The notes beneath the pieces were generated by a model that searched no databases, was not told where the DNA came from, and saw only the letters and a list, made by a program, of their open reading frames with translations. Position numbers and translations under genes: made by a program. This document shows, in pieces, positions 6,969 through 59,390 of a stretch of 64,000 nt of DNA. The stretch comes from an uncultured virus (IMG/VR IMGVR_UViG_3300029923_000016). Its lineage: Duplodnaviria; Heunggongvirae; Uroviricota; Caudoviricetes. How positions within the stretch are numbered: position 1 is the stretch's first letter; the number at the start of each line of letters is the position of its first letter. Where the stretch lies: the IMG/VR virus record IMGVR_UViG_3300029923_000016. One strand, written 5' to 3'.

Positions 6969-7931
6969 TTAAGTCGCCGCAAAATAGGTGATACTAATAT
7001 TAAACCCGGACGTTGTACTTGGCGCAGGGCCACCCGTAAAAAAGTTTAAGTTACTGCCCGCAACATAGACTCCATATATTCCAGGGCTACCCAGCACAGT
7101 ACCGCTCGAAGAGCCAATTGCGGCAAAGGGTAAGGGTATAACTGAAAAGCTTGATATTTGTACGGATGTTGCCCCACGCAATAACATATTTAAGGTAACT
7201 TGCCTGCCAATTTTTGTATAGAGAAAAGAGGACGTGTTCGCTCCAACAAAGGTAATAGAGGCGCCTATAGTTGGCGTCCAGCTCCCCTCTTGGTAATCAT
7301 CCAGCGTATTAACATCCGTGCTGGCAACCTGTGTAGCAGGGAAGCCTACTTGCCCGCCCCGTAGGGCTAAGGTGCCGACGCCGGCGGTAACATTGGAAGA
7401 GGCCCCGGTGAACTTAACCAACCCTGTCGCAGCGATGGTATTAAAGGTAGGGGTGGTTGACGTCGAGACAGCAGTAGCATCGCCTACTGTCGCTATCGTA
7501 ATATTGGTGCCTGCCGTCACACTGGTGTTATTGAGCGCCTGAACGAAATTCACGGTATCACAATAGACCAGCACCGTTGCGCCGGCTTTAACAGAGACAG
7601 CACTGCCCGTTGCTCCACGAATACGGATATCAAAACCCCCCGTCGTCGCATTGCGGACAATATAGGTCTTCTCGACGAGCGGCGCAATGATGTCAAAAAT
7701 AGCGGCGGGTGTGCCCGTCGCCACCAATACCGCATTACGCGCCTGATTACTGATGCCGTCCGAATTAGTCAGCGTGACATTGGCTGTTGATATCACAATC
7801 GCCTGCACGCCGGTGATAGCCTGCTCTATCAAGGTGCCGAGATTGGTGTTGGTCAACGTGCCCCAGGTGCCGGTGTTCTCCCCCGTACCTAATAACGCTA
7901 TTTTTAAACTTGGGGAGTAGGAGGTTGCCAT
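6969..7931 (-). CDS. Tail fibre-like structural protein
   Basis: N-terminus TGENTGTWGTLTNTNLGTLIEQAI; LDDYQEGSWTPT...YTKIGRQV module common in fibres. Confidence 0.7.
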   Translation of the reverse strand: MATSYSPSLKIALLGTGENTGTWGTLTNTNLGTLIEQAITGVQAIVISTANVTLTNSDGISNQARNAVLVATGTPAAIFDIIAPLVEKTYIVRNATTGGFDIRIRGATGSAVSVKAGATVLVYCDTVNFVQALNNTSVTAGTNITIATVGDATAVSTSTTPTFNTIAATGLVKFTGASSNVTAGVGTLALRGGQVGFPATQVASTDVNTLDDYQEGSWTPTIGASITFVGANTSSFLYTKIGRQVTLNMLLRGATSVQISSFSVIPLPFAAIGSSSGTVLGSPGIYGVYVAGSNLNFFTGGPAPSTTSGFNISITYFAAT

Positions 7932-7953
7932 GCTAATTATCCTGTGGTATTAT
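7925..7953 (+). promoter_or_regulatory. Sigma70-like promoter for guide array 1
   Basis: TTGCCA-17 bp-TATTAT with extended TG. Confidence 0.7.
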
Positions 7954-7959
7954 ATTGTT

Positions 7960-8057
7960 TCGATGCGGTGCGATGCTATGCGTTGCGTTGCGCAGCATTG
8001 CGAAGCAAAGGTTACTTTAAAGTATCTAATCAAGCCTCGGTAAAACGAGGCTTTTTT
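7960..8057 (+). ncRNA. Putative non-contiguous guide RNA, array 1: (GCNNW)x9, palindrome, terminator
   Basis: GCGGT GCGAT GCTAT GCGTT GCGTT GCGCA GCATT GCGAA GCAAA at 7965-8009; TACTTTAAAGTA; terminal hairpin. Antisense to the late operon. Confidence 0.8.
8032..8057 (+). terminator. Rho-independent terminator
   Basis: AAGCCTCG-gtaaaa-CGAGGCTT followed by a T-run. Confidence 0.8.
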
Positions 8058-8064
8058 ATGCCCC

Positions 8065-8193
8065 CTATTGCGAGTCGTCTATAATAGCCCAATCGACCGT
8101 TTGGCTGTTGTCTATCAACTCCCAGACTTGGGTCAGTCGTTCGTTAGGGTCTTGTGAAAAAGCCAGTTCTGAATAAGCACTATTCCCGTACAC
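8065..8193 (-). CDS. Small virion-associated protein (42 aa, below ORF-track cutoff)
   Basis: GTG start with GGAGG RBS: MYGNSAYSELAFSQ...WELIDNSQTVDWAIIDDSQ. Confidence 0.6.
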   Translation of the reverse strand: MYGNSAYSELAFSQDPNERLTQVWELIDNSQTVDWAIIDDSQ

Positions 8194-48623: not shown

Positions 48624-48822
48624 GTCCCTATTCTGCCACTTCGACGAAGCCCGGGGCATCTGCCTCGGCTGCTTCAGAACCCGCTATGACTTACGGCATT
48701 GGACGGGATATAACGATATTTTAAGGCAGAAAGTAATGATGCGTTCTTTTGAGCGCATGGATGATTTCTTTATTGTAAATGAGCAGTTCTTTAATCGAAA
48801 CCTTGACCATTACGACGGGTGA
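48592..48822 (+). CDS. DUF1289-like Cys-rich protein
   Basis: STPC...C.FD...ICLGCFRT..D...W. Confidence 0.65.
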   Translation: MATYRISTPCESLFCHFDEARGICLGCFRTRYDLRHWTGYNDILRQKVMMRSFERMDDFFIVNEQFFNRNLDHYDG

Positions 48823-48831
48823 GGGTATTAT
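48803..48831 (+). promoter_or_regulatory. Sigma70-like promoter for guide array 2
   Basis: TTGACC-17 bp-TATTAT. Confidence 0.75.
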
Positions 48832-48837
48832 ATGAAC

Positions 48838-48935
48838 CCTAAGCGCTGCCTTGCCCTGCTTAGCCTAGCTTAGCGATGCGCTGCAAAGCAAAGACTAATT
48901 AATTAGTGGTCTACACTCTCTGACGAGAGTGTTTT
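48838..48935 (+). ncRNA. Putative non-contiguous guide RNA, array 2: (GCNNW)x10 plus two hairpins
   Basis: Pentamers at 48843-48892; ACTAATTAATTAGT; ACACTCTC-tgac-GAGAGTGT. Confidence 0.8.
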
Positions 48936-48960
48936 CCAGTAACTAATTATAAGGTGTCTT

Positions 48961-49269
48961 ATGTCCTATTTAACGCCCGAAGGGCGAATCAAAAAGCAAA
49001 TCAAAGCTATACTGGCTGAGTATGGGGTATATTATTTCATGCCAGCGCCCGGGTTTACTTGTAAAGTAGGCGTTCCAGACTATATATGCTGCCTTAATGG
49101 GCATTTCATAGCCATCGAAGCCAAGGCCGGGCGCAAGCTGCCGACGCTGCTGCAACAACGTGAACTTGACTTAATCAACGCCGCAGGCGGCGTGGCTTTG
49201 GTGGTTAACGCCGACAACATACACGCTTTTCCCCTCATACTACAAGAGATAATGAAATGCAACTACTAA
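48961..49269 (+). CDS. VRR-NUC domain nuclease
   Basis: TPEG.IK..I...L, GVPDYI, FIAIEAKAG..PT.LQ. Confidence 0.88.
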   Translation: MSYLTPEGRIKKQIKAILAEYGVYYFMPAPGFTCKVGVPDYICCLNGHFIAIEAKAGRKLPTLLQQRELDLINAAGGVALVVNADNIHAFPLILQEIMKCNY

Positions 49270-52055
49270 CTCTGGACGCAGAAACTTTTTATGCAAAAGA
49301 TTATTCCCTAAGTAAGCTGACGACCGAGCAATATATAACAGATGACCGCTTCGAGGTTATCGGTGTATCCACCAAGATTAACAACGAGCCCGCACAATGG
49401 TTCTCCGGAACATTTGATGAGACGAAAGCATACCTAAACCAATTTGATTGGGATGATATTGCATTAGTAAACCACAATAGTCTATTCGACTCAAGCATCC
49501 TTGGCCTGCGCTTCGGTATCCACCCTAAGAAGCTCATCGACACGCTAAGTATGTCAAGAGCAATCCATGGCATCGAGGTCGGGGGCAGTCTGGCCAAGCT
49601 GGCTGAGCATTACCAGCTGGGTGTCAAGGGCACTGAGGTCATCAATGCCTTGGGTAAACGTAAACAAGACTTTACTACTGAAGAACTAGCGCGCTATGGT
49701 GAGTACTGCAAGAACGACACCGAGCTAACGTACAAATTGTTTTACAAACTACTGCCGCACTTTACTAAATCTGAATTAGACATTATTGATATCACCCTGA
49801 AGATGGCCACACGACCGTTGTTGGAATTGGATAAAGCCGTGCTGACCGCACACCTTGCCGACGTGCAAGCTAAAAAACAAGCGCTCATGGACAAGGTCAT
49901 TGTCTCTCGAAAAGAGCTGATGTCCAACGTCAAATTGGCGCAACTGCTGATAGACTGTGGCGTGGAGCCGCCAATGAAGCTGTCGCCGACTACCGGTAAG
50001 CCGGCCTATGCGTTCGCTAAAACAGACGAGGGCTTCAAAGCATTACTTGACTCTGATAACCTTATGGTACAAACTATTGTTGCTGCTCGGTTGGGTGTTA
50101 AATCAACGCTTGAAGAAACGCGATGTGAAAGGGTTATTGGCATTGCAGAAAGGAACAGGTGTTGTCCTTTCCCGCTGAAGTATTACAGTGCCGCGACAGG
50201 GCGCTGGGCGGGGGCAGATAAAATCAATGTCCAGAATTTCCCGCGTAAGTCGCCGTTAAAGCGAGCGTTCAAGGCCCCCGAGGGTTATGTTATTCTGGGC
50301 GCGGACTTAAAACAAATCGAACTGCGCGTGGGCCTCTGGCTGTCGTCGGAGTGGGAGAAACTGGATATCCTGGCAGGCGGGCTGGACTTGTATAAAGTCT
50401 TCGCCTCAGAGGTACTGGGTGTTGCCTATGATGAGGTCACAGAAGACCAGCGCTTTATTGCCAAGACCTCCTGTATCGCAGAAGGACAGCTTGTCCTTAC
50501 CCCAAGGGGTTTAGTGCCTATAGAAAACATTTTGGTAGACGATAGAGTATGGGATGGGGTAGAATGGGTCTCACATGATGGGGTCATTTACCAAGGGGAG
50601 AGAGATGTCATCACATACCAAGGACTTACAGCCACTACCGACCATATTATATTTACGCAAACTGGTGAGACCCGCCAGTTCGGGGATGCCGCCAATTTAT
50701 CAGCGCGTCTCGCTACTACCGGAGATGATAGGCGCCCGCTTAAATTCATGGGAGATAATCAGTACCGAGATACAACAAACAGTGAAATCGGGGAGCATAA
50801 AGATACATGTGCGCTGCGTTTGTGGCAGAGAGCAGTGGGCGTATGTAGAGGCCATTATCAGAGGGCAGTCCAGACGATGCAAGCCTTGTGCAACACGAAC
50901 TCGGCACCAAAGGCAAGGTCATCTGATTGTCTGGGACAAGGTTACGGAGCTTATACAAAAACGGGCAACAGCTATGCAACAAAGATGCTGCAATCCTATG
51001 GACAAAGGCTACGCCAATTACGGAGGACGAGGGATTCAGTTTTTGTTTGGCTCAACGAAAGAGTGTGTAGAGTATATCAAAACGTTGCCTCTCTGGGATT
51101 CCGGGTTGGAGGTGGACCGAATCGACAACAATGGACACTATGCAGTAGGGAACTTGCGTATGGTGTCCCGCAAGGTACAGACCAGCAATCGTCGAAATAC
51201 GATGTGGATTTCGTGGCGAGAGGAAATGCTTCTGGTAGCGGACTGGGCAGAATCCCCTTACGCACTGAGAGTAACCTGCAAGTATGTTCAGCAGGGTTTA
51301 ACGGGGGAACAAATTATCCAGACCGCATGGGACTCAGTGGCGAAGAAATGCAAGAATTGGCGGGGGATAAAAAGAAAGTTAGAGTCTATGACATATTAAA
51401 CGCCGGCCCTAGGCATCGCTTCACGGTGTCTAACGTGTTAGTCCATAACTGTCTGTCATTGGTTTTTGGGGTGGGCGCGGCGAAGCTGCAAGCGGCTATT
51501 CTCTCGGGTATAGGTTTGGATGTGGGCATCGTCGAAAGTAAACGGATAGTGGAATTTTACCGAGACAACCACCCCGGTGTGAGAGCAGCATGGTCGGCGT
51601 GTGGTAACGCTATTAAGTTATTAACCACAGGCGGTGAGGGGATGATACTAACCGATAATTTAATCAAGGTCGAAGGGCGCAAGGGTATCCGGCTACCGTC
51701 AGGACTGTATTTAAAATACCCTGAGCTACAGTATTCTGAAGATGCGCAGACCCGGAAGCGGGAATATAAATACAAAATTAGAAGCAGTTGGGATAGATTG
51801 TACAGCGGTAAGTGTTTTAACAATATTACTCAGGCAACTGCACGCTGTATCTTTGCTGAGGCGCTACCCAAAATCAATAAGCATTACCCTATTGTATTAT
51901 TGATTCACGACGCCGCCTATGTCCTGGTGCCGGAGGGGGGTGTAGAGGAGGCGAAGCAGATTTTAGAAGAAATCATGTGCCAGCCGCCGGACTGGATGCC
52001 GGATATTCCCTTGGAGGTTGAGTTTCATTATGGCCGAACTCTTTTCGATTGTTAG
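49257..52055 (+). CDS. Family A DNA polymerase with intein
   Basis: LTLDAET exonuclease motif, TGRW, ADLKQIELR (motif A), RFIAKTS/CLSLVFG (motif B, split by intein), IHD (motif C). Confidence 0.92.
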   Translation: MQLLTLDAETFYAKDYSLSKLTTEQYITDDRFEVIGVSTKINNEPAQWFSGTFDETKAYLNQFDWDDIALVNHNSLFDSSILGLRFGIHPKKLIDTLSMSRAIHGIEVGGSLAKLAEHYQLGVKGTEVINALGKRKQDFTTEELARYGEYCKNDTELTYKLFYKLLPHFTKSELDIIDITLKMATRPLLELDKAVLTAHLADVQAKKQALMDKVIVSRKELMSNVKLAQLLIDCGVEPPMKLSPTTGKPAYAFAKTDEGFKALLDSDNLMVQTIVAARLGVKSTLEETRCERVIGIAERNRCCPFPLKYYSAATGRWAGADKINVQNFPRKSPLKRAFKAPEGYVILGADLKQIELRVGLWLSSEWEKLDILAGGLDLYKVFASEVLGVAYDEVTEDQRFIAKTSCIAEGQLVLTPRGLVPIENILVDDRVWDGVEWVSHDGVIYQGERDVITYQGLTATTDHIIFTQTGETRQFGDAANLSARLATTGDDRRPLKFMGDNQYRDTTNSEIGEHKDTCALRLWQRAVGVCRGHYQRAVQTMQALCNTNSAPKARSSDCLGQGYGAYTKTGNSYATKMLQSYGQRLRQLRRTRDSVFVWLNERVCRVYQNVASLGFRVGGGPNRQQWTLCSRELAYGVPQGTDQQSSKYDVDFVARGNASGSGLGRIPLRTESNLQVCSAGFNGGTNYPDRMGLSGEEMQELAGDKKKVRVYDILNAGPRHRFTVSNVLVHNCLSLVFGVGAAKLQAAILSGIGLDVGIVESKRIVEFYRDNHPGVRAAWSACGNAIKLLTTGGEGMILTDNLIKVEGRKGIRLPSGLYLKYPELQYSEDAQTRKREYKYKIRSSWDRLYSGKCFNNITQATARCIFAEALPKINKHYPIVLLIHDAAYVLVPEGGVEEAKQILEEIMCQPPDWMPDIPLEVEFHYGRTLFDC
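50472..51449 (+). mobile_element. Intein in DNA polymerase motif B (326 aa, C1...HN|C+1)
   Basis: CIAEGQLVLT (block A), TATTDH (block B), VYDI...F..SNVLVHN (blocks F/G). Confidence 0.9.
50686..51399 (+). CDS. HNH-type homing endonuclease overprinted in the +1 frame of the polymerase intein (frame open from 50575)
   Basis: RCVCG, C..C, MQQRC.NP...YANYGGRGI, EVDRIDNNGHY.VGNLR.V....Q..NRR. Confidence 0.85.
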   Translation: MPPIYQRVSLLPEMIGARLNSWEIISTEIQQTVKSGSIKIHVRCVCGREQWAYVEAIIRGQSRRCKPCATRTRHQRQGHLIVWDKVTELIQKRATAMQQRCCNPMDKGYANYGGRGIQFLFGSTKECVEYIKTLPLWDSGLEVDRIDNNGHYAVGNLRMVSRKVQTSNRRNTMWISWREEMLLVADWAESPYALRVTCKYVQQGLTGEQIIQTAWDSVAKKCKNWRGIKRKLESMTY

Positions 52056-52174
52056 GCAGTGTCTGTATTGTTGGCTACACGGCTTTGGCATGAAAACTGG
52101 AGCGGAGATTTGGCTTAGACGCCAAGGCATCCGCGAAAATTCTAACTATCATTTAGGCTCACAGAGGCGACCAC

Positions 52175-52381
52175 GTGAATGAAATAGAGATTAGTTTTCA
52201 CAGTATTGAGTTAAGTATTTTTTATAATATCGACCCCAAGATTGGCTTGAATATTTTGTATATCTACCATTTCGATGAGGAAATCTCCTGTTATCTTAAT
52301 TTCTACGCGGTTTCGGAAATCAAACAGGCGATTTGGGAGCATCTCGATTCTCCTGATACTCTTTCAATAGCAAATCAATGA
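52175..52381 (+). CDS. Hypothetical AT-rich protein
   Basis: GAGG RBS, GTG start. Confidence 0.45.
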   Translation: MNEIEISFHSIELSIFYNIDPKIGLNILYIYHFDEEISCYLNFYAVSEIKQAIWEHLDSPDTLSIANQ

Positions 52382-52483
52382 GTTGTGTTAGGGGGAGTCC
52401 CAAATCTAATGATAGCTGCTTAAGGTTTTTGTGTGTCTGAACCTTAACCAGCAGAGAAACATATTTTTTATTCATATATAAGG

Positions 52484-52511
52484 TTGCGTATTAAATTAGG
52501 GGGTGTATAAT
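52484..52511 (+). promoter_or_regulatory. Sigma70-like promoter for the tandem guide locus (arrays 3-5)
   Basis: TTGCGT-16 bp-TATAAT with AT-rich upstream sequence. Confidence 0.6.
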
Positions 52512-52551
52512 ATTATATATGAAATTTATAGAGGGGGTTAATTTATGTGAG

Positions 52552-52691
52552 TCAAAGCTATGCAATGCTTAGCCGTGCACTGCGATGCTGAGCGATGCCG
52601 TGCCTAGCTATGCTCTGCGGAGCAATGCAAAGCCTAATTAATTAGGGTACTGAGTCTTCTCACGAGGGCTTAGTGCGGTAATTAATTTACC
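52552..52691 (+). ncRNA. Putative guide array 3: (GCNNW)x15 plus three hairpins
   Basis: Pentamers at 52557-52631; CCTAATTAATTAGG; 13-bp G-U-rich stem at 52647-52676; GGTAA..TTACC. Confidence 0.85.
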
Positions 52692-52798
52692 AAAGCGCTG
52701 CTGTGCCTTGCTATGCGAAGCCATGCGGAGCAATGCAAAGGCTATTTTAATAATAGCGTACTAGCCATTCCAACGAGTGGTTAGTGCGGTATTGTACC
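52692..52798 (+). ncRNA. Putative guide array 4: (GCNNW)x9 plus three hairpins
   Basis: Pentamers at 52695-52739; GCTATT..AATAGC; 13-bp stem at 52758-52787; GGTA..TACC. Confidence 0.85.
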
Positions 52799-52878
52799 AC
52801 TGCGATGCAGTGCGATGCCTTGCAGTGCCAAGCTTAGCATAGCACAGCGAAGCAAAGGCCGTGCCTTTTAGGCACGGC
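52799..52878 (+). ncRNA. Putative guide array 5: (GCNNW)x11 plus hairpin
   Basis: Pentamers at 52802-52856; GCCGTGCCT-ttt-AGGCACGGC. Confidence 0.82.
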
Positions 52879-52900
52879 ACCCTATTTTTAGGAGAATCAA

Positions 52901-53590
52901 ATGTCAAAAATGTTGCCGTGGAGTTATTCGGGGCTAAGCCAATTTCAAGTATGCCCGTTGCAATTCTACGAGCATCGCGTACGTAAAAGCGTACCGTTCA
53001 TAGAGACCGATGCGATTAAGTACGGCAAAGCCCTGCACAGCGCGGCGGAGTTTTACATCAAGTCCAACATGCCCTTGCCTGCCGAGTTTGCGTTCATGCA
53101 GAGCTACCTGGATAAGCTAATAGCGTTGCCGGGCAAAAAATATGTCGAGCTACAGATGGGCATAGCTATCAAAGATTGGGCGTTTGTCCATTGTGATTAC
53201 TGGGATTCAAGCTGCTGGTATCGGGGCGTCAGTGATTTTATTTCCGTTGACCACGATAATGAGAAAGCTTACCTGGTCGATTTTAAGACCGGTAAGAGTG
53301 CAGCCTATGCCGACACCACCCAGTTGGCATTACTGGCGGCGCTTATTTTTCTGCATTTCCCGAAGGTCAAAACGGTCAAAAGCATGCTGTTGTTCGTCAA
53401 GGCTGGACAAATTGTCAAAGCAGAGTATGATTTTGCCAGTCGGTTTACAGTGTTTGCGCATCTGAATCAGGACTTAAAACGCCTGAAAGCGGCGTACGAA
53501 AGTAACGTGTGGAATCCAACGCAGAACAATTTCTGCAAGCGCTGGTGTGCGGTACATACCTGTGTACATAACGGAGAATATAGTGAGTGA
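52901..53590 (+). CDS. Cas4-like PD-(D/E)XK exonuclease
   Basis: WSYS.L..F..CP, G..LH, RGVSD, VDFKTGK, QL, C.RWC....C. Confidence 0.88.
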   Translation: MSKMLPWSYSGLSQFQVCPLQFYEHRVRKSVPFIETDAIKYGKALHSAAEFYIKSNMPLPAEFAFMQSYLDKLIALPGKKYVELQMGIAIKDWAFVHCDYWDSSCWYRGVSDFISVDHDNEKAYLVDFKTGKSAAYADTTQLALLAALIFLHFPKVKTVKSMLLFVKAGQIVKAEYDFASRFTVFAHLNQDLKRLKAAYESNVWNPTQNNFCKRWCAVHTCVHNGEYSE

Positions 53591-54288: not shown

Positions 54289-54501
54289 ATGCAAATATCA
54301 ACCAAGTCAGTGATATCACTGGCAGAGGAAGCGGGGCTCCCGCCCTCTTTAATCGAGCGCCACACCGATGCTTTAACGCATTTTGCACTCCGCCTGCGCA
54401 TGGCAGAACGGCGCGTTTGTCGTAATAAGCTGCGCAACTGGACCATAGACAAGTCCCTGAGCAAGCCGCCGCTACTTGAGGCGCTGACGGAGCATGATTG
54501 A
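54289..54501 (+). CDS. Hypothetical protein
   Basis: GAGGA RBS, MQISTKSV. Confidence 0.55.
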   Translation: MQISTKSVISLAEEAGLPPSLIERHTDALTHFALRLRMAERRVCRNKLRNWTIDKSLSKPPLLEALTEHD

Positions 54502-57139
54502 GATAATACATGATAAGGTGTTATCCGTCACCACGGATAGCCCTGACGACATTACAACAGTAATAGACAAGTACAAGATAGACAATGGCAAAGTGCTCAT
54601 CCCCTTTAATCTGGGGAATGTTCACATATTAAAAAACATGGGCTTTACGGTACCGTCGCCCATTGAGACTCGGTATGGGTGGCCTGGACTCCATAAACCC
54701 TTTTCGCATCAGCGCAGTATCGCTTCGTTTTTGACCTTGAATAGGCGGGCGTATAACTTTGGCGAATTAGGAATTGGCAAAACGAAAAGCGCTATCTGGG
54801 CTGCCGACTACCTACTAAGTATAGGTGCTATACGGCGTGTATTGGTTATCGCGCCGCTTAGCATCCTCGATTCTGCATGGAAGCAGGAGATATTCAGGAC
54901 AGTGATGCATCGGTCTGTTGATGTGGCGCATGGCACAAAGGAGAAACGCGAGGCAATAATCAATAGTAAAGCTGAGTTTATACTTATCAATTATGATGGC
55001 GTCGAGATTGTGATTGACGCTTTGGACCGAGGTAACTTTGATTTAATCATAATTGATGAGTGCTTTGTAGCTGGGACACGAGTTCTTACGCCTATTGGTT
55101 TTAGAGCTATTGAACAAATCGTAGAAGGTGATATAATAGAGACAAGTTGGGGGCCAAGACCCGTAACCAAAACGTTTCATAAACAATCATCCAACATAGT
55201 TGAAGTCGAGTTTGAAGATGGTATCAAAATTACCTGCACAGAAGAGCACCCTTTCTCAACCCGAAATGGTTGGGTCGCCGCAAAAGACCTCCTTGGTGAA
55301 ATATGTACTACATCAAGAGAATTGTCACACCTGCGGGACGCCGTTCGAGCAGAAGGTGTTTGCCAACCAGAAGGCATCTCACTATTGTTCTCGCGCATGT
55401 TGGAAAGAGTCGTACTATGTAGATTTGGTGTGCGGGCATTGCGGAAAAAAGTATCGAAAGGTAAAGAGTTACTTAAGAACCAACCCTGCAAAATATTGCA
55501 GCACAAAATGTACGGCGCAAGCGCGCTCTGCAAAAGTTATGGGGGAGACAGTTATGTGTCCGGTCTGCGGAGGGGAGCATTTTGTACCCCACAGAGTGTT
55601 GCGGTATCGTCCAGCATTAACCTGTTCCCGTTCCTGCGCCAGAAAGTTAGTGTGGCAAACAGAGCGAAAGCGGATGATGGATGGCGTACAGAAAGCAGCG
55701 GAGAAGCATCGGGGCCAACCCTCACCTCTCAGGGGGATTCCCCATACAGAAGAGCGCAAGCAACAACAGCGTGCGCTGGCAGTAGAGTTGGGGAGTCGGG
55801 AACCGTTCATGCGAGTGCGGGGCGGCAATGGTACGGGTATGTCAAGAGTAGAGTTACTAATGCGCTCAATACTCCCAGAAAGTTTCCAATACAACTATAT
55901 TGTAAAGACATTACAAAAGCGTGGAAGCGGGTATCCCTATCACTACAAGCTGGATTTCGCAGACCCTTTACAGATGATTTGTTTAGAAGTAGACGGGTAC
56001 AGCCACAATACAATACAGCGTCAAGAACAAGACAGGAAGAAAGAGGCGTTGCTTCAGGACTTAGGGTGGTCAGTGTTACGCGTATCCAACAAGGATGTCC
56101 TCGCGATGTTTGGAATCTGGAAGTAGCGGGCCCTCATGATTATATCGTTGAGGATGTGCTAGTCCATAACTGCAACTACATAAAGAACGTCCAAACCCGC
56201 AAGCACAAGTTCATTAACAAGTTGATTAAAGCGGATACCTGGTGCTGGCTAATGACCGCTACACCGGCTGCGCAGAGCCCTTGTGATGCCTATGGTCTGG
56301 CGCGTATGATAGACCCTAAATCAGTGCCTCGGTCTTATGGTGCATTTAGGGAGATGGTGCAGTATAAAATCAATATGTTTATGTGGATAAATAAACCCGA
56401 TGCAGAGCGAACAGTACACAGAGTTTTACAACCCGCAATTAGATTTACTAAATCAGAATGTTTGGATTTACCTGAGCTATTATATGAGACGCGTGAAGTA
56501 CCTCTGACCGCACAGCAAAACAAGTATTACAAACTTCTAAAAAAGGAAATGATGATTCTCGCTGCGGGTACAACGGTCACTGCGGCGAACGCAGCGGTTC
56601 TGATTGGAAAGTTGTTGCAAATTTCAGCGGGCAACTGTTATGATGAACGTGGGGATATTATTGAGTTTGATATCTCCAACCGATTCAGAGAGCTGTGTGA
56701 TATCATCCGTGAGACGCGTAACAAAACGATAGTGTTTGTGCAGTTTAGGAACTCCATCGAGCGAATCATGCGGATGCTGCAGGATGAAGGCATTACTTGC
56801 GAGGCCATTCACGGGAAAATCCCCATGAATAAGCGGGATGTCATCTTCTCTGATTTCCAAAACAAACCCGACCCGCAAGTGTTAATCATCCAGCCGCAAG
56901 CTGCGGCACACGGTGTGACATTGACAAAAGCGGATACGACAATATGGTTCGGGGTACCCATGTCCTTTGAAATTTACCAACAAGGGAATGGGCGTACGCA
57001 CCGCGCCGGACAACGCAACCAATGTACTGTTGTCCATTTGATAGGTAGTGATGTTGAGAAGAAAGTATTGAACGCGTTGGACAAAAAGAATATGTCCGCA
57101 ACGACTCTATTGGCATTATTTAAAGAGGTAATAAAATGA
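54494..57139 (+). CDS. SNF2-like DNA helicase with intein
   Basis: GIGKT, IIIDE|C (Walker B split by intein), TATP, AHGVTLT, QGNGRTHR.GQ. Confidence 0.92.
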   Translation: MIEIIHDKVLSVTTDSPDDITTVIDKYKIDNGKVLIPFNLGNVHILKNMGFTVPSPIETRYGWPGLHKPFSHQRSIASFLTLNRRAYNFGELGIGKTKSAIWAADYLLSIGAIRRVLVIAPLSILDSAWKQEIFRTVMHRSVDVAHGTKEKREAIINSKAEFILINYDGVEIVIDALDRGNFDLIIIDECFVAGTRVLTPIGFRAIEQIVEGDIIETSWGPRPVTKTFHKQSSNIVEVEFEDGIKITCTEEHPFSTRNGWVAAKDLLGEICTTSRELSHLRDAVRAEGVCQPEGISLLFSRMLERVVLCRFGVRALRKKVSKGKELLKNQPCKILQHKMYGASALCKSYGGDSYVSGLRRGAFCTPQSVAVSSSINLFPFLRQKVSVANRAKADDGWRTESSGEASGPTLTSQGDSPYRRAQATTACAGSRVGESGTVHASAGRQWYGYVKSRVTNALNTPRKFPIQLYCKDITKAWKRVSLSLQAGFRRPFTDDLFRSRRVQPQYNTASRTRQEERGVASGLRVVSVTRIQQGCPRDVWNLEVAGPHDYIVEDVLVHNCNYIKNVQTRKHKFINKLIKADTWCWLMTATPAAQSPCDAYGLARMIDPKSVPRSYGAFREMVQYKINMFMWINKPDAERTVHRVLQPAIRFTKSECLDLPELLYETREVPLTAQQNKYYKLLKKEMMILAAGTTVTAANAAVLIGKLLQISAGNCYDERGDIIEFDISNRFRELCDIIRETRNKTIVFVQFRNSIERIMRMLQDEGITCEAIHGKIPMNKRDVIFSDFQNKPDPQVLIIQPQAAAHGVTLTKADTTIWFGVPMSFEIYQQGNGRTHRAGQRNQCTVVHLIGSDVEKKVLNALDKKNMSATTLLALFKEVIK
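55061..56170 (+). mobile_element. Intein in helicase Walker B (370 aa, C1...HN|C+1)
   Basis: CFVAGTRVLT (block A), ITCTEEHPF (block B), VWNLEV...Y...VLVHN (blocks F/G). Confidence 0.9.
55266..56126 (+). CDS. Zinc-finger plus Vsr/DUF559-like endonuclease overprinted in the +1 frame of the helicase intein (frame open from 55200)
   Basis: Three C..CG...CS..C repeats; YKLDFA...LEVDGYSH.....DRKKE..L..LGWSVLR. Confidence 0.85.
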   Translation: MVGSPQKTSLVKYVLHQENCHTCGTPFEQKVFANQKASHYCSRACWKESYYVDLVCGHCGKKYRKVKSYLRTNPAKYCSTKCTAQARSAKVMGETVMCPVCGGEHFVPHRVLRYRPALTCSRSCARKLVWQTERKRMMDGVQKAAEKHRGQPSPLRGIPHTEERKQQQRALAVELGSREPFMRVRGGNGTGMSRVELLMRSILPESFQYNYIVKTLQKRGSGYPYHYKLDFADPLQMICLEVDGYSHNTIQRQEQDRKKEALLQDLGWSVLRVSNKDVLAMFGIWK

Positions 57140-58271: not shown

Positions 58272-59249
58272 ATGAGCAACTTAAGCATATTTAAAAACGG
58301 CGGCGGCGTCCCTGCCCATCTTCAAAAAAGAGAGCTGTCTGCCGCCACCAAAGCCTTGATGGGTGGTTTTGAAAACCGCCGTATCTCTATCCGGGGCGGG
58401 GTCTTCCGCAAGGTCATCAATGGTCAGGAGGTGGGTTCCATCCCCGAACGGGCACTGAACGTGGTCATTGTTGGCGTCGCCGAGCATACTTCCCGGCAGT
58501 ATTACAAAGCCGCCTATCAGGAGAATGCCGACCCGGTGGCACCGGACTGCTACAGTGCTGACGGCATCACGCCGATGGCAACAGCGACGGCGATTCAAGC
58601 AGCCACCTGCGCCGCCTGTCCACAGAATATCGCAGGCTCAGGCCAAGGTGATTCCAAAGCCTGCCGCTTCCAACGCCGCATTGCGGTGGTCTTGGAGAAA
58701 AACCTGGAAGATGGTGAGGTTTATGAAATGACGCTGGCAGCGACCAGTCTGTTTGGTGGCAAGGGCAAGCCTGACCCCGACAAGATGGGCATGCGCCAGT
58801 ACGCCAACTTTTTGGGTGGTTACGGCGTCAACATCGACGCCGTGGTCACTGAATTGCGCTTTGATTTGGACGCCGCCACCCCGAAATTACTGTTCGCGGC
58901 ATTAAGACCGTTAGAGACGGATGAGCTGTTGCTGGTTGAGGAATATTCCAAATTGCCGGAGACTATCCAGGCTATCACATACAGCTTTGGTGGGGTGGTG
59001 GTGAAACCGGCGGCTGCCGAATTGCCCTTTATCCAGCCTCGCCCAGCTCCTGCCCCCGCAGCTGCGTCAGTGCCTGAGCCAGAGCCCGTCGTTCCGGCAC
59101 GCACAAGGGTCACTCGAAATCGCCCCGCCGCAGCCGCTGCGCCTGCCCCTGAAGTCATTCCGGAGCCGATACGCCGTGAAAGCCACGCCGCGCCGCAACC
59201 CGCCTCGACAAATATTGATGAGCTGCTATCGGAGTGGGGCGACGAGTGA
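58272..59249 (+). CDS. Putative ssDNA-binding/annealing (SSB-like) protein
   Basis: RISIRGG.FR, PDCYS.DG, C..CPQN..GS...KACR, Pro/Ala linker, acidic tail DELLSEWGDE. Confidence 0.65.
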   Translation: MSNLSIFKNGGGVPAHLQKRELSAATKALMGGFENRRISIRGGVFRKVINGQEVGSIPERALNVVIVGVAEHTSRQYYKAAYQENADPVAPDCYSADGITPMATATAIQAATCAACPQNIAGSGQGDSKACRFQRRIAVVLEKNLEDGEVYEMTLAATSLFGGKGKPDPDKMGMRQYANFLGGYGVNIDAVVTELRFDLDAATPKLLFAALRPLETDELLLVEEYSKLPETIQAITYSFGGVVVKPAAAELPFIQPRPAPAPAAASVPEPEPVVPARTRVTRNRPAAAAAPAPEVIPEPIRRESHAAPQPASTNIDELLSEWGDE

Positions 59250-59261: not shown

Positions 59262-59370
59262 TCCATAGCGATGCGATGCCTAGCCTAGCTTAGCGTTGCG
59301 ATGCGATGCTATGCAGTGCAAAGGCCACTTTAAAGTGGCAAGAACGAGCGGCTTAGGCCGCTCCTTTTTC
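59262..59370 (+). ncRNA. Putative guide array 6: (GCNNW)x11, palindrome, terminator
   Basis: Pentamers at 59268-59322; GCCACTTTAAAGTGGC; GAGCGGC-ttag-GCCGCTC plus T-run. Confidence 0.87.
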
Positions 59371-59390
59371 CTCTTCGGGACACATCAAAA

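Follow-up and report, generated by a model that had tools for sequence, protein, structure and literature searches.

Orphan pentamer-array guides beside conserved genes of an uncultured caudovirus: a vrRNA probably aimed at the start of a relative's exonuclease gene

The type II VIPR system of Escherichia phage SUSP1 comprises the Vipr protein, vap1 and vrRNAs built of GGY/NN repeats (10.64898/2026.04.26.720920; structures in 10.64898/2026.04.26.720927). According to the text of these preprints, VIPR targets DNA on both strands and natural targets were defined by a match of at least 80% of the NN bases (10.64898/2026.04.26.720920), while H17 and D177 of SUSP1 Vipr read the first G of the repeat, and assembly of the complex starts at the tail end of the vrRNA (10.64898/2026.04.26.720927). 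The skipping of the wobble position is said there to block synonymous escape (10.64898/2026.04.26.720920; 10.64898/2026.10.15.759431). In the preprint text, SUSP1-type systems are aimed at satellites, at prophages and at other VIPR loci, and not at the counterpart of an adjacent gene. Non-canonical repeats have been also described, namely YNNNG and NNNNG (10.64898/2026.04.26.720920) as well as WGT/NN and TGH/NN (10.64898/2026.10.21.760802). Solo vrRNAs, i.e. guides without an effector, are reported from VIPR-null phages and F5 satellites and are proposed to borrow the Vipr of a rival; in the text of that preprint they occur as one or two guides at a vipr-vap deletion, aimed at vipr, vrRNAs, satellites or host REP elements, and those directed against vrRNAs match self less well than the rival (10.64898/2026.10.15.759431).

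Here we describe the arrays of an uncultured member of Caudoviricetes (IMG/VR record IMGVR_UViG_3300029923_000016), in a stretch of 64,000 nt hereafter called the window. They resemble the SUSP1 system in their 9-16 pentamer units, structured 3' tail, tandem guides, 1-nt wobble skip and use of both strands, but differ from it in the repeat triplet, in the tail sequence and in a genome devoid of vipr or vap. They also resemble the published solo vrRNAs, except that there are six guides at four places, four of which adjoin the very gene, of the replication or virion module, to which they decode. The preprints thus already describe orphan guides, variant triplets and a lower match to self; the VIPR preprint text consulted (figures and supplements aside) contains neither a WGC or AGC triplet by name, nor an A-first repeat tied to the loss of H17/D177, nor guides beside codon-family-swapped homologues of their own.

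All six arrays of WGC/NN units in the window (A1-A6, Table 1) are on the + strand, with 9-15 units each, i.e. within the vrRNA range of 9-16. In Markov simulations the longest chance run of WGCNN is 3-4 units (30/30), and the A4 array is not a product of chance. Among the 65 units of the six arrays TGC is found in 41 and AGC in 24, and the canonical fixed triplet GGY is absent; judged by their sequences, these arrays and the AGY/NN arrays discussed below fit the published YNNNG consensus. Each array is followed by a hairpin tail (fold z -2.6 to -6.2), so that the conserved, structured 3' tail of a vrRNA is present. The terminal NN is AA in all six, and 42 of 46 non-self arrays close with AA or AC, in a sample to which the search pattern lent some bias; the terminal AA units of A4 may be scaffold. 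The A4 tract is kept in the five near-identical records that span the region (L001-L005). A3 and A4 are identical in their last three units (52616-52632 and 52724-52740). Read in sense against polA these units give G-K-K, and read in antisense against the exonuclease F-L-P; duplication or conversion may account for the common end.

Table 1. Guide arrays, their tails and the genes and near-sites discussed in the text (positions in the window)
Feature	Position	Strand	Evidence or remarks
A1 (9 units) and tail; decodes to start of adjacent minus-strand gene 6969-7931	7964..8070	+	
Near-site of A1 across start codon of minus-strand gene 6969-7931	7912..7938	+	7/9 residues, 14/18 bases
A2 (10 units) and tail	48842..48955	+	
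Near-site of A3 in own polA, residues 839-853	51771..51815	+	11/15 residues, 19/30 bases
Promoter-like site upstream of A3-A4-A5: perfect -10 hexamer, 16-nt spacer, weak -35	52484..52511	+	read by eye
A3 (15 units) and tail; sense decoding to adjacent DNA polymerase gene polA	52556..52693	+	
A4: nine WGC/NN units, guide region of orphan vrRNA	52694..52738	+	sequence
A4 tail (long hairpin); tails of vipr-linked AGY/NN arrays are homologous	52739..52800	+	fold z -6.2; 49-50/62
A5 (11 units) and terminal hairpin; weak sense hint to exonuclease residues 9-19	52801..52878	+	
PD-(D/E)XK exonuclease gene, 229 aa, four invariant Cys	52901..53590	+	PF12705 E 1e-11; phrog_69
Own near-site of A4: exonuclease residues 4-12, antisense, wobble-aligned	52910..52936	+	9/18 bases; both Ser codons in other family
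Near-site of A6 in own gene	58920..58952	+	11/11 residues, 18/22 bases; mismatches only Leu, Leu, Ser
A6 (11 units) and tail; sense decoding to adjacent 325-aa gene	59267..59380	+	

A promoter scanner made no call at the promoter-like site, which is preceded by an AT-rich stretch with an inverted repeat (52400-52455). RNA contigs from three runs are scattered and short, with none over A4 among those listed, and Rfam gave 0 matches in the window. In the DNA run X6, single contigs link polA to an array-like stretch (51578 to 52584) and skip A2 (48797 to 49111); they possibly represent relatives with other array layouts, but their sides are short, at 80% likeness. Among the surrounding genes, those for polA (49257-52055) and an SNF2 helicase (54494-57139) exceed their homologues in length, each is overlapped in another frame by a long endonuclease-like ORF (50575-51399 and 55200-56126, respectively), and Pfam intein domains have been found in the helicase.

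The arrays were connected to VIPR through the exonuclease homologue search, which led to a related phage (L103) whose AGY/NN arrays have similar tails and which carries a gene of 192 aa (L103:1537-2115). A pattern scan revealed many further AGY/NN arrays, most of them adjoining homologues of that gene. A profile of nine array-linked proteins matches the solved SUSP1 Vipr with E 2e-48, the L103 protein itself is 43% identical to SUSP1 Vipr, and its alignment-based structure model (pLDDT 83) matches Csm3/Cas7 folds. Of its 62 positions, the A4 tail shares 49-50 with the best-matching tails at four Vipr-linked AGY/NN loci (L175, L177, L180 and L197), compared with a shuffled maximum of 40/62 and with 33/62, i.e. 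the shuffle level, for the SUSP1 tail. In the family of the window phage, three records (G013, G015, G016) are Vipr-positive, with 77% identity in the capsid, 52-56% in polA and 39-40% in the exonuclease. Records G001 and G002 are of equal length and have equal array positions. A contig of 49 kb from a genome titled Methylomarinum sp. carries an AGY-type VIPR locus whose tail is related (L386/L387), which is a hint, no more, to methanotrophs as hosts of the AGY VIPR clade.

The phage genome closes at ~71.7 kb by joining a second record to the window, and apart from a Rha-type gene the 7.7 kb outside the window encode nothing but two large proteins of virion type, so the idea that an own effector resides there was rejected. 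No vipr or vap was found in the window plus this gap (best E 0.23 in tblastn and 0.83 in hmmsearch --max), and vipr is present in 0/5 records of the window phage; a very divergent effector might still be hidden among the unannotated ORFs. The carrier genome without vipr is that of a solo vrRNA, as opposed to a complete VIPR with vipr and vap at the locus. Because their tails are homologous to those of Vipr-linked arrays and the genome is without vipr or vap, we regard the arrays as orphan vrRNAs, and A4 is almost certainly a genuine orphan guide belonging to a variant clade of VIPR.

The repeat triplet of this clade appears to vary together with the protein. We aligned 29 Vipr frames, 21 of them beside A-first repeats, 7 beside G-first or mixed ones and one without a called array. 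H17 is found in 0/21 of the A-first frames and D/E177 in 0/19 of those with position 177 resolved, whereas D/E177 is found in 6/7 of the G-first or mixed frames, and at least one of H17 and D/E177 in 7/7. Since the sequences are related, this association is a lead and not a test; it suggests an orthogonal guide scaffold, with A-first repeats and matching Vipr changes at positions 17 and 177. The Vipr-linked arrays are nearly all AG(C/T) (505/514 units) and the window arrays TGC-rich (41/65), so that the loading of the window guides by Vipr is something we infer.

As to the reading code, a 13-unit Vipr-linked AGY guide (L252) scores 24/26 bases with a skip of 1 on the primase gene of a related phage (region L015:15382-15408), against 18/26 at skips 0 and 2 and a maximum of 20 in 30 shuffles; this guide is the best of 85 scored, and the mean best scores do not differ between skips. 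A3 matches polA of L087, a phage with no array between polA and exonuclease, at 24/30 bases, only at skip 1 and above 30/30 shuffles. A4 gave nothing convincing at skips 0, 2 and 3. From these alignments, wobble-aligned recognition with a 1-nt skip holds for the repeat clade and for the sister arrays. Another Vipr-linked AGY guide (L244) matches the vipr gene of L103 at 19/22, a score reached by 1/30 shuffles.

The NN series of A4 is GC TG CT TA GA CA GG AA AA, as given in the original prediction together with its reverse complement, which at codon positions 1-2 spells (F/L)(F/L)-P-(W/C)-S-Y-(S/R)-(H/Q)-A. The adjacent gene had been called a Cas4-like exonuclease starting with MLPWSYSGL at 52910-52936. 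The reading of these codons is correct, but the ORF begins at 52901 (MSKMLPW), which makes 52910 residue 4; the score against Cas_Cas4 (20.2 bits) falls below the cut-off of 22.7 while Pfam PDDEXK_1 passes, a CRISPR context is likewise lacking, the window giving no Rfam match, and the gene encodes a phage PD-(D/E)XK exonuclease and not Cas4. Compared with it, A4 matches 6/9 residues, 4/9 dinucleotides and 9/18 bases, and both serines under A4 indeed belong to the other codon family than the guide.

Whether A4 decodes to the exonuclease start depends on the scoring. Unweighted, over six frames, the match is at chance level (92/100 shuffles do as well), but with residue-frequency weights, a scoring chosen post hoc after the claim had been seen, and with 77 hand-picked ORFs compared in both orientations, A4 has its best genome-wide match at the exonuclease start, with a null of 19/1000 (unit shuffle) or 18/1000 (base shuffle). 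When only the three neighbouring genes are counted, the null is 2/1000 and 0/1000, respectively; without the last two units it is 36/1000 genome-wide and 5/1000 among neighbours. When A4 was compared with 172 homologous proteins, the best match was FLPWSYSGL (7/9 residues, null 2/500), which is present in 6/10 close exonuclease homologues.

The weighted best matches of A1, A3 and A6 also lie in adjacent genes (null 0/1000 each), and the best match is in an adjacent gene for 4/6 arrays (P 6e-5). A5 in sense gave a hint to exonuclease residues 9-19, with a null of 3/500 for close homologues and 56/500 for all, as one of 30 tests; this weak site overlaps that of A4 on the other strand. A1 in sense also matches a homologue of the 325-aa gene (L009:14089) at 16/18 (0/100 within the family), a score that 1/20 and 3/30 shuffles reach across all loci, and we regard this site as a weaker rival to the adjacent-gene reading of A1. 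The opposite orientations of A3 and A4, which had been taken to support a DNA target, are real and fit such a target, yet A3 and A6 alone already imply DNA, because a guide that copies the sense strand cannot pair with the mRNA.

Guides and own proteins agree at 12 Ser, Leu or Arg positions, and at nine of these the own codon is from the other family, compared with 5.3 expected from the codon usage of the window genome (P 0.027; the tally was made by hand). For conserved serines in 10,878 exonuclease pairs, the family differs in at most 6% above 70% identity, in 30% at 60-70% and in about half at 40-60%. Inside the A3 footprint of polA the Arg family differs between L087 and the window at 2/2 conserved positions, as opposed to 0/6 outside, and L087 carries the state of the guide at both. 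In the exonuclease homologues, TC-TA-AG, on whose occurrence the original prediction had staked its case, proved to be the commonest serine state (41/123 distinct sites, 15 loci being without a parsed site), and the own state AG-TA-TC was found in 20/123. The exonuclease of L087, 68% identical, shares AG-TA-TC and differs in family at 1/10 conserved serines, and hence the own state is old, not a recent private escape. As the target of A4, the sequences thus point either to a lineage in which both serines have switched or to a family member at a greater distance. A6 fits its own protein at 11/11 residues and three relatives at 78-85% identity at 10/11, which points to a very close target.

The search for the target itself was carried out on several levels. 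The gapped A4 pattern that had been proposed for homologues yielded 0 exact 18-base sites in IMG/VR, and the best A4 site among exonuclease homologues scores 13/18, at chance level (68/100 shuffles do equally). The residues (Q/H)A follow the exonuclease motif in 0/123 DNA sites and in 0/113 parsed proteins (of 173). The in-frame pattern P-W-S-Y-S-(Q/H)-A gave eight matches, none of them an exonuclease, and the in-frame A3 core pattern none. There are no exonuclease relatives between 47% and 100% identity in IMG/VR and no close ones in GTDB (0/90 candidates); L087, one among the metagenome matches listed, is the only close relative whose exonuclease DNA was compared. In a DNA run, contigs of relatives span the exonuclease start. 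A close relative with swapped serines would score only 14/18 for A4, under the 80% threshold of natural targets. The window guides remain at the null level against 10 Vipr-positive records (A4 reaches at best 14/18 in Vipr-positive relatives from the family) and show no match above null to 38 vipr and 12 vap frames, and 136 foreign guides are at the null level against the window genome, at most one base above 10 shuffles in 2/136. A2 was considered as a vipr-targeting guide and rejected, with 12/20 at best at the candidate site.

Taking the evidence together, we believe that A4 is probably an orphan vrRNA aimed at the exonuclease start of a relative, with the own allele spared. A3, A4 and A5 would be transcribed together, most likely from the promoter-like site, and A4 would be loaded onto the Vipr of a co-infecting or resident element. 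It would then pair with codon positions 1-2 on the coding strand where the relative encodes F/M-L-P-W-S-Y-S with TCN-TAY-AGY, and the guides would repress rival polA and exonuclease alleles by binding double-stranded DNA, without cutting. The own exonuclease allele keeps the protein and would be spared by failing at 9/18 read bases, four of them due to the two serine-family differences. The two units of A4 that do not match, (Q/H)A, are the ones distal to the tail, the tail being the end at which SUSP1 complexes begin to form. Transcription, loading, donor, target phage and immunity are what we infer here. The match to own DNA is 82% for A6, 78% for A1 and 50% for A4; as the value for A6 exceeds the 80% threshold, some self-binding is possible and immunity is not assured.

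Other explanations of A4 have been also considered. It could be read in sense and be directed at a conserved motif, A-W-L-Y-D-Q-G-K, in the head-scaffolding gene shared by a group of unrelated phages, its likeness to the exonuclease being coincidental. Two of the eight pattern matches lie, wobble-aligned, in long ORFs that share this motif and score 17/18 (L172) and 16/18 (L169) with 8/9 residues; the L172 ORF is a head scaffolding protein (phrog_3927), both loci also match the next AA unit, outside the search pattern, and these are the only sites found above the 80% threshold in a recognisable gene. Nonetheless, we think this unlikely, because the loci were picked by the search pattern itself, which makes the scores circular, and because ~8 sites with at least 17/18 are expected by chance per 1e10 positions; they also leave unexplained the match to the neighbouring gene (2/1000) as well as the same layout in three other arrays. 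That layout (0/1000 for each of the three), along with P of 0.002-0.005 for A4 among neighbours with or without the terminal units, also makes it improbable that the target of A4 is unsampled or A4 decayed and that the exonuclease match is due to chance aided by the scaffold AA units, even though the unweighted score is matched by most shuffles, the genome-wide P is only 0.02-0.04, and A2 and A5 are without an assigned target.

We attach a similarly low probability to the possibility that the guides dampen the neighbouring genes of their own phage by pairing with them in part, or that they are left over from a VIPR once owned and since lost, having matched ancestral own alleles. The complete fit of A6 to its own protein, compared with only 10/11 in relatives at 81-85% identity, and the high matches of A6 and A1 to own DNA would agree with it; against it speak the low own-DNA match of A4, the absence of an own Vipr from the genome, the intact tails and promoter-like sites, which argue against decay, and the four Ser AG/TC differences over three arrays, which are double changes that keep the residue, unlike drift of a guide. 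Finally, the RNAs might act mainly as sponges that occupy the Vipr of a rival, whatever they match. Six intact guides without an effector would suit this role, and redirection of Vipr by solo vrRNAs is reported for satellites in the text of a preprint (10.64898/2026.10.15.759431), but according to the same text the antagonism by satellites is target-dependent, as measured against a non-targeting control bearing the tail, and a sponge would not need a codon-phased match to neighbouring genes. We therefore consider it very unlikely.

If A4 is indeed aimed at a relative's exonuclease, a further step can be tentatively envisaged, which we regard as possible though rather doubtful: each guide and its neighbouring gene may form a linked attack-immunity cassette, in which the borrowed Vipr of a rival silences the rival's allele of an essential gene, the own allele escapes by a Ser, Leu or Arg family switch with the protein unchanged, and both spread jointly by recombination. 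There is an analogy to the free-standing homing endonucleases of phage T4 (intronless homing, marker exclusion), which, in passages of PMC2988022, are likewise intergenic elements next to a conserved gene that attack the rival allele and spare their own; those enzymes cut DNA and drive gene conversion, whereas type II Vipr represses without cutting. The likeness is an analogy only.

Six-fold-degenerate codons constitute the loophole in a code that skips the wobble position, and beneath the guides of the window genome nine of the 12 candidate positions seem to exploit it. If the proposed function of A4 is true, it explains by what means conserved genes shared with rivals can be targeted by a phage that does not silence itself, and it provides ready pairs of guides and near-miss sites for measuring the mismatch tolerance of VIPR. 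The layout with the guide beside its target bears on the origin and spread of vrRNAs. Should the cassette exist, it would be an RNA-guided counterpart of intronless homing, with the switch of the codon family as the one synonymous escape left by a code that reads codon positions 1-2.
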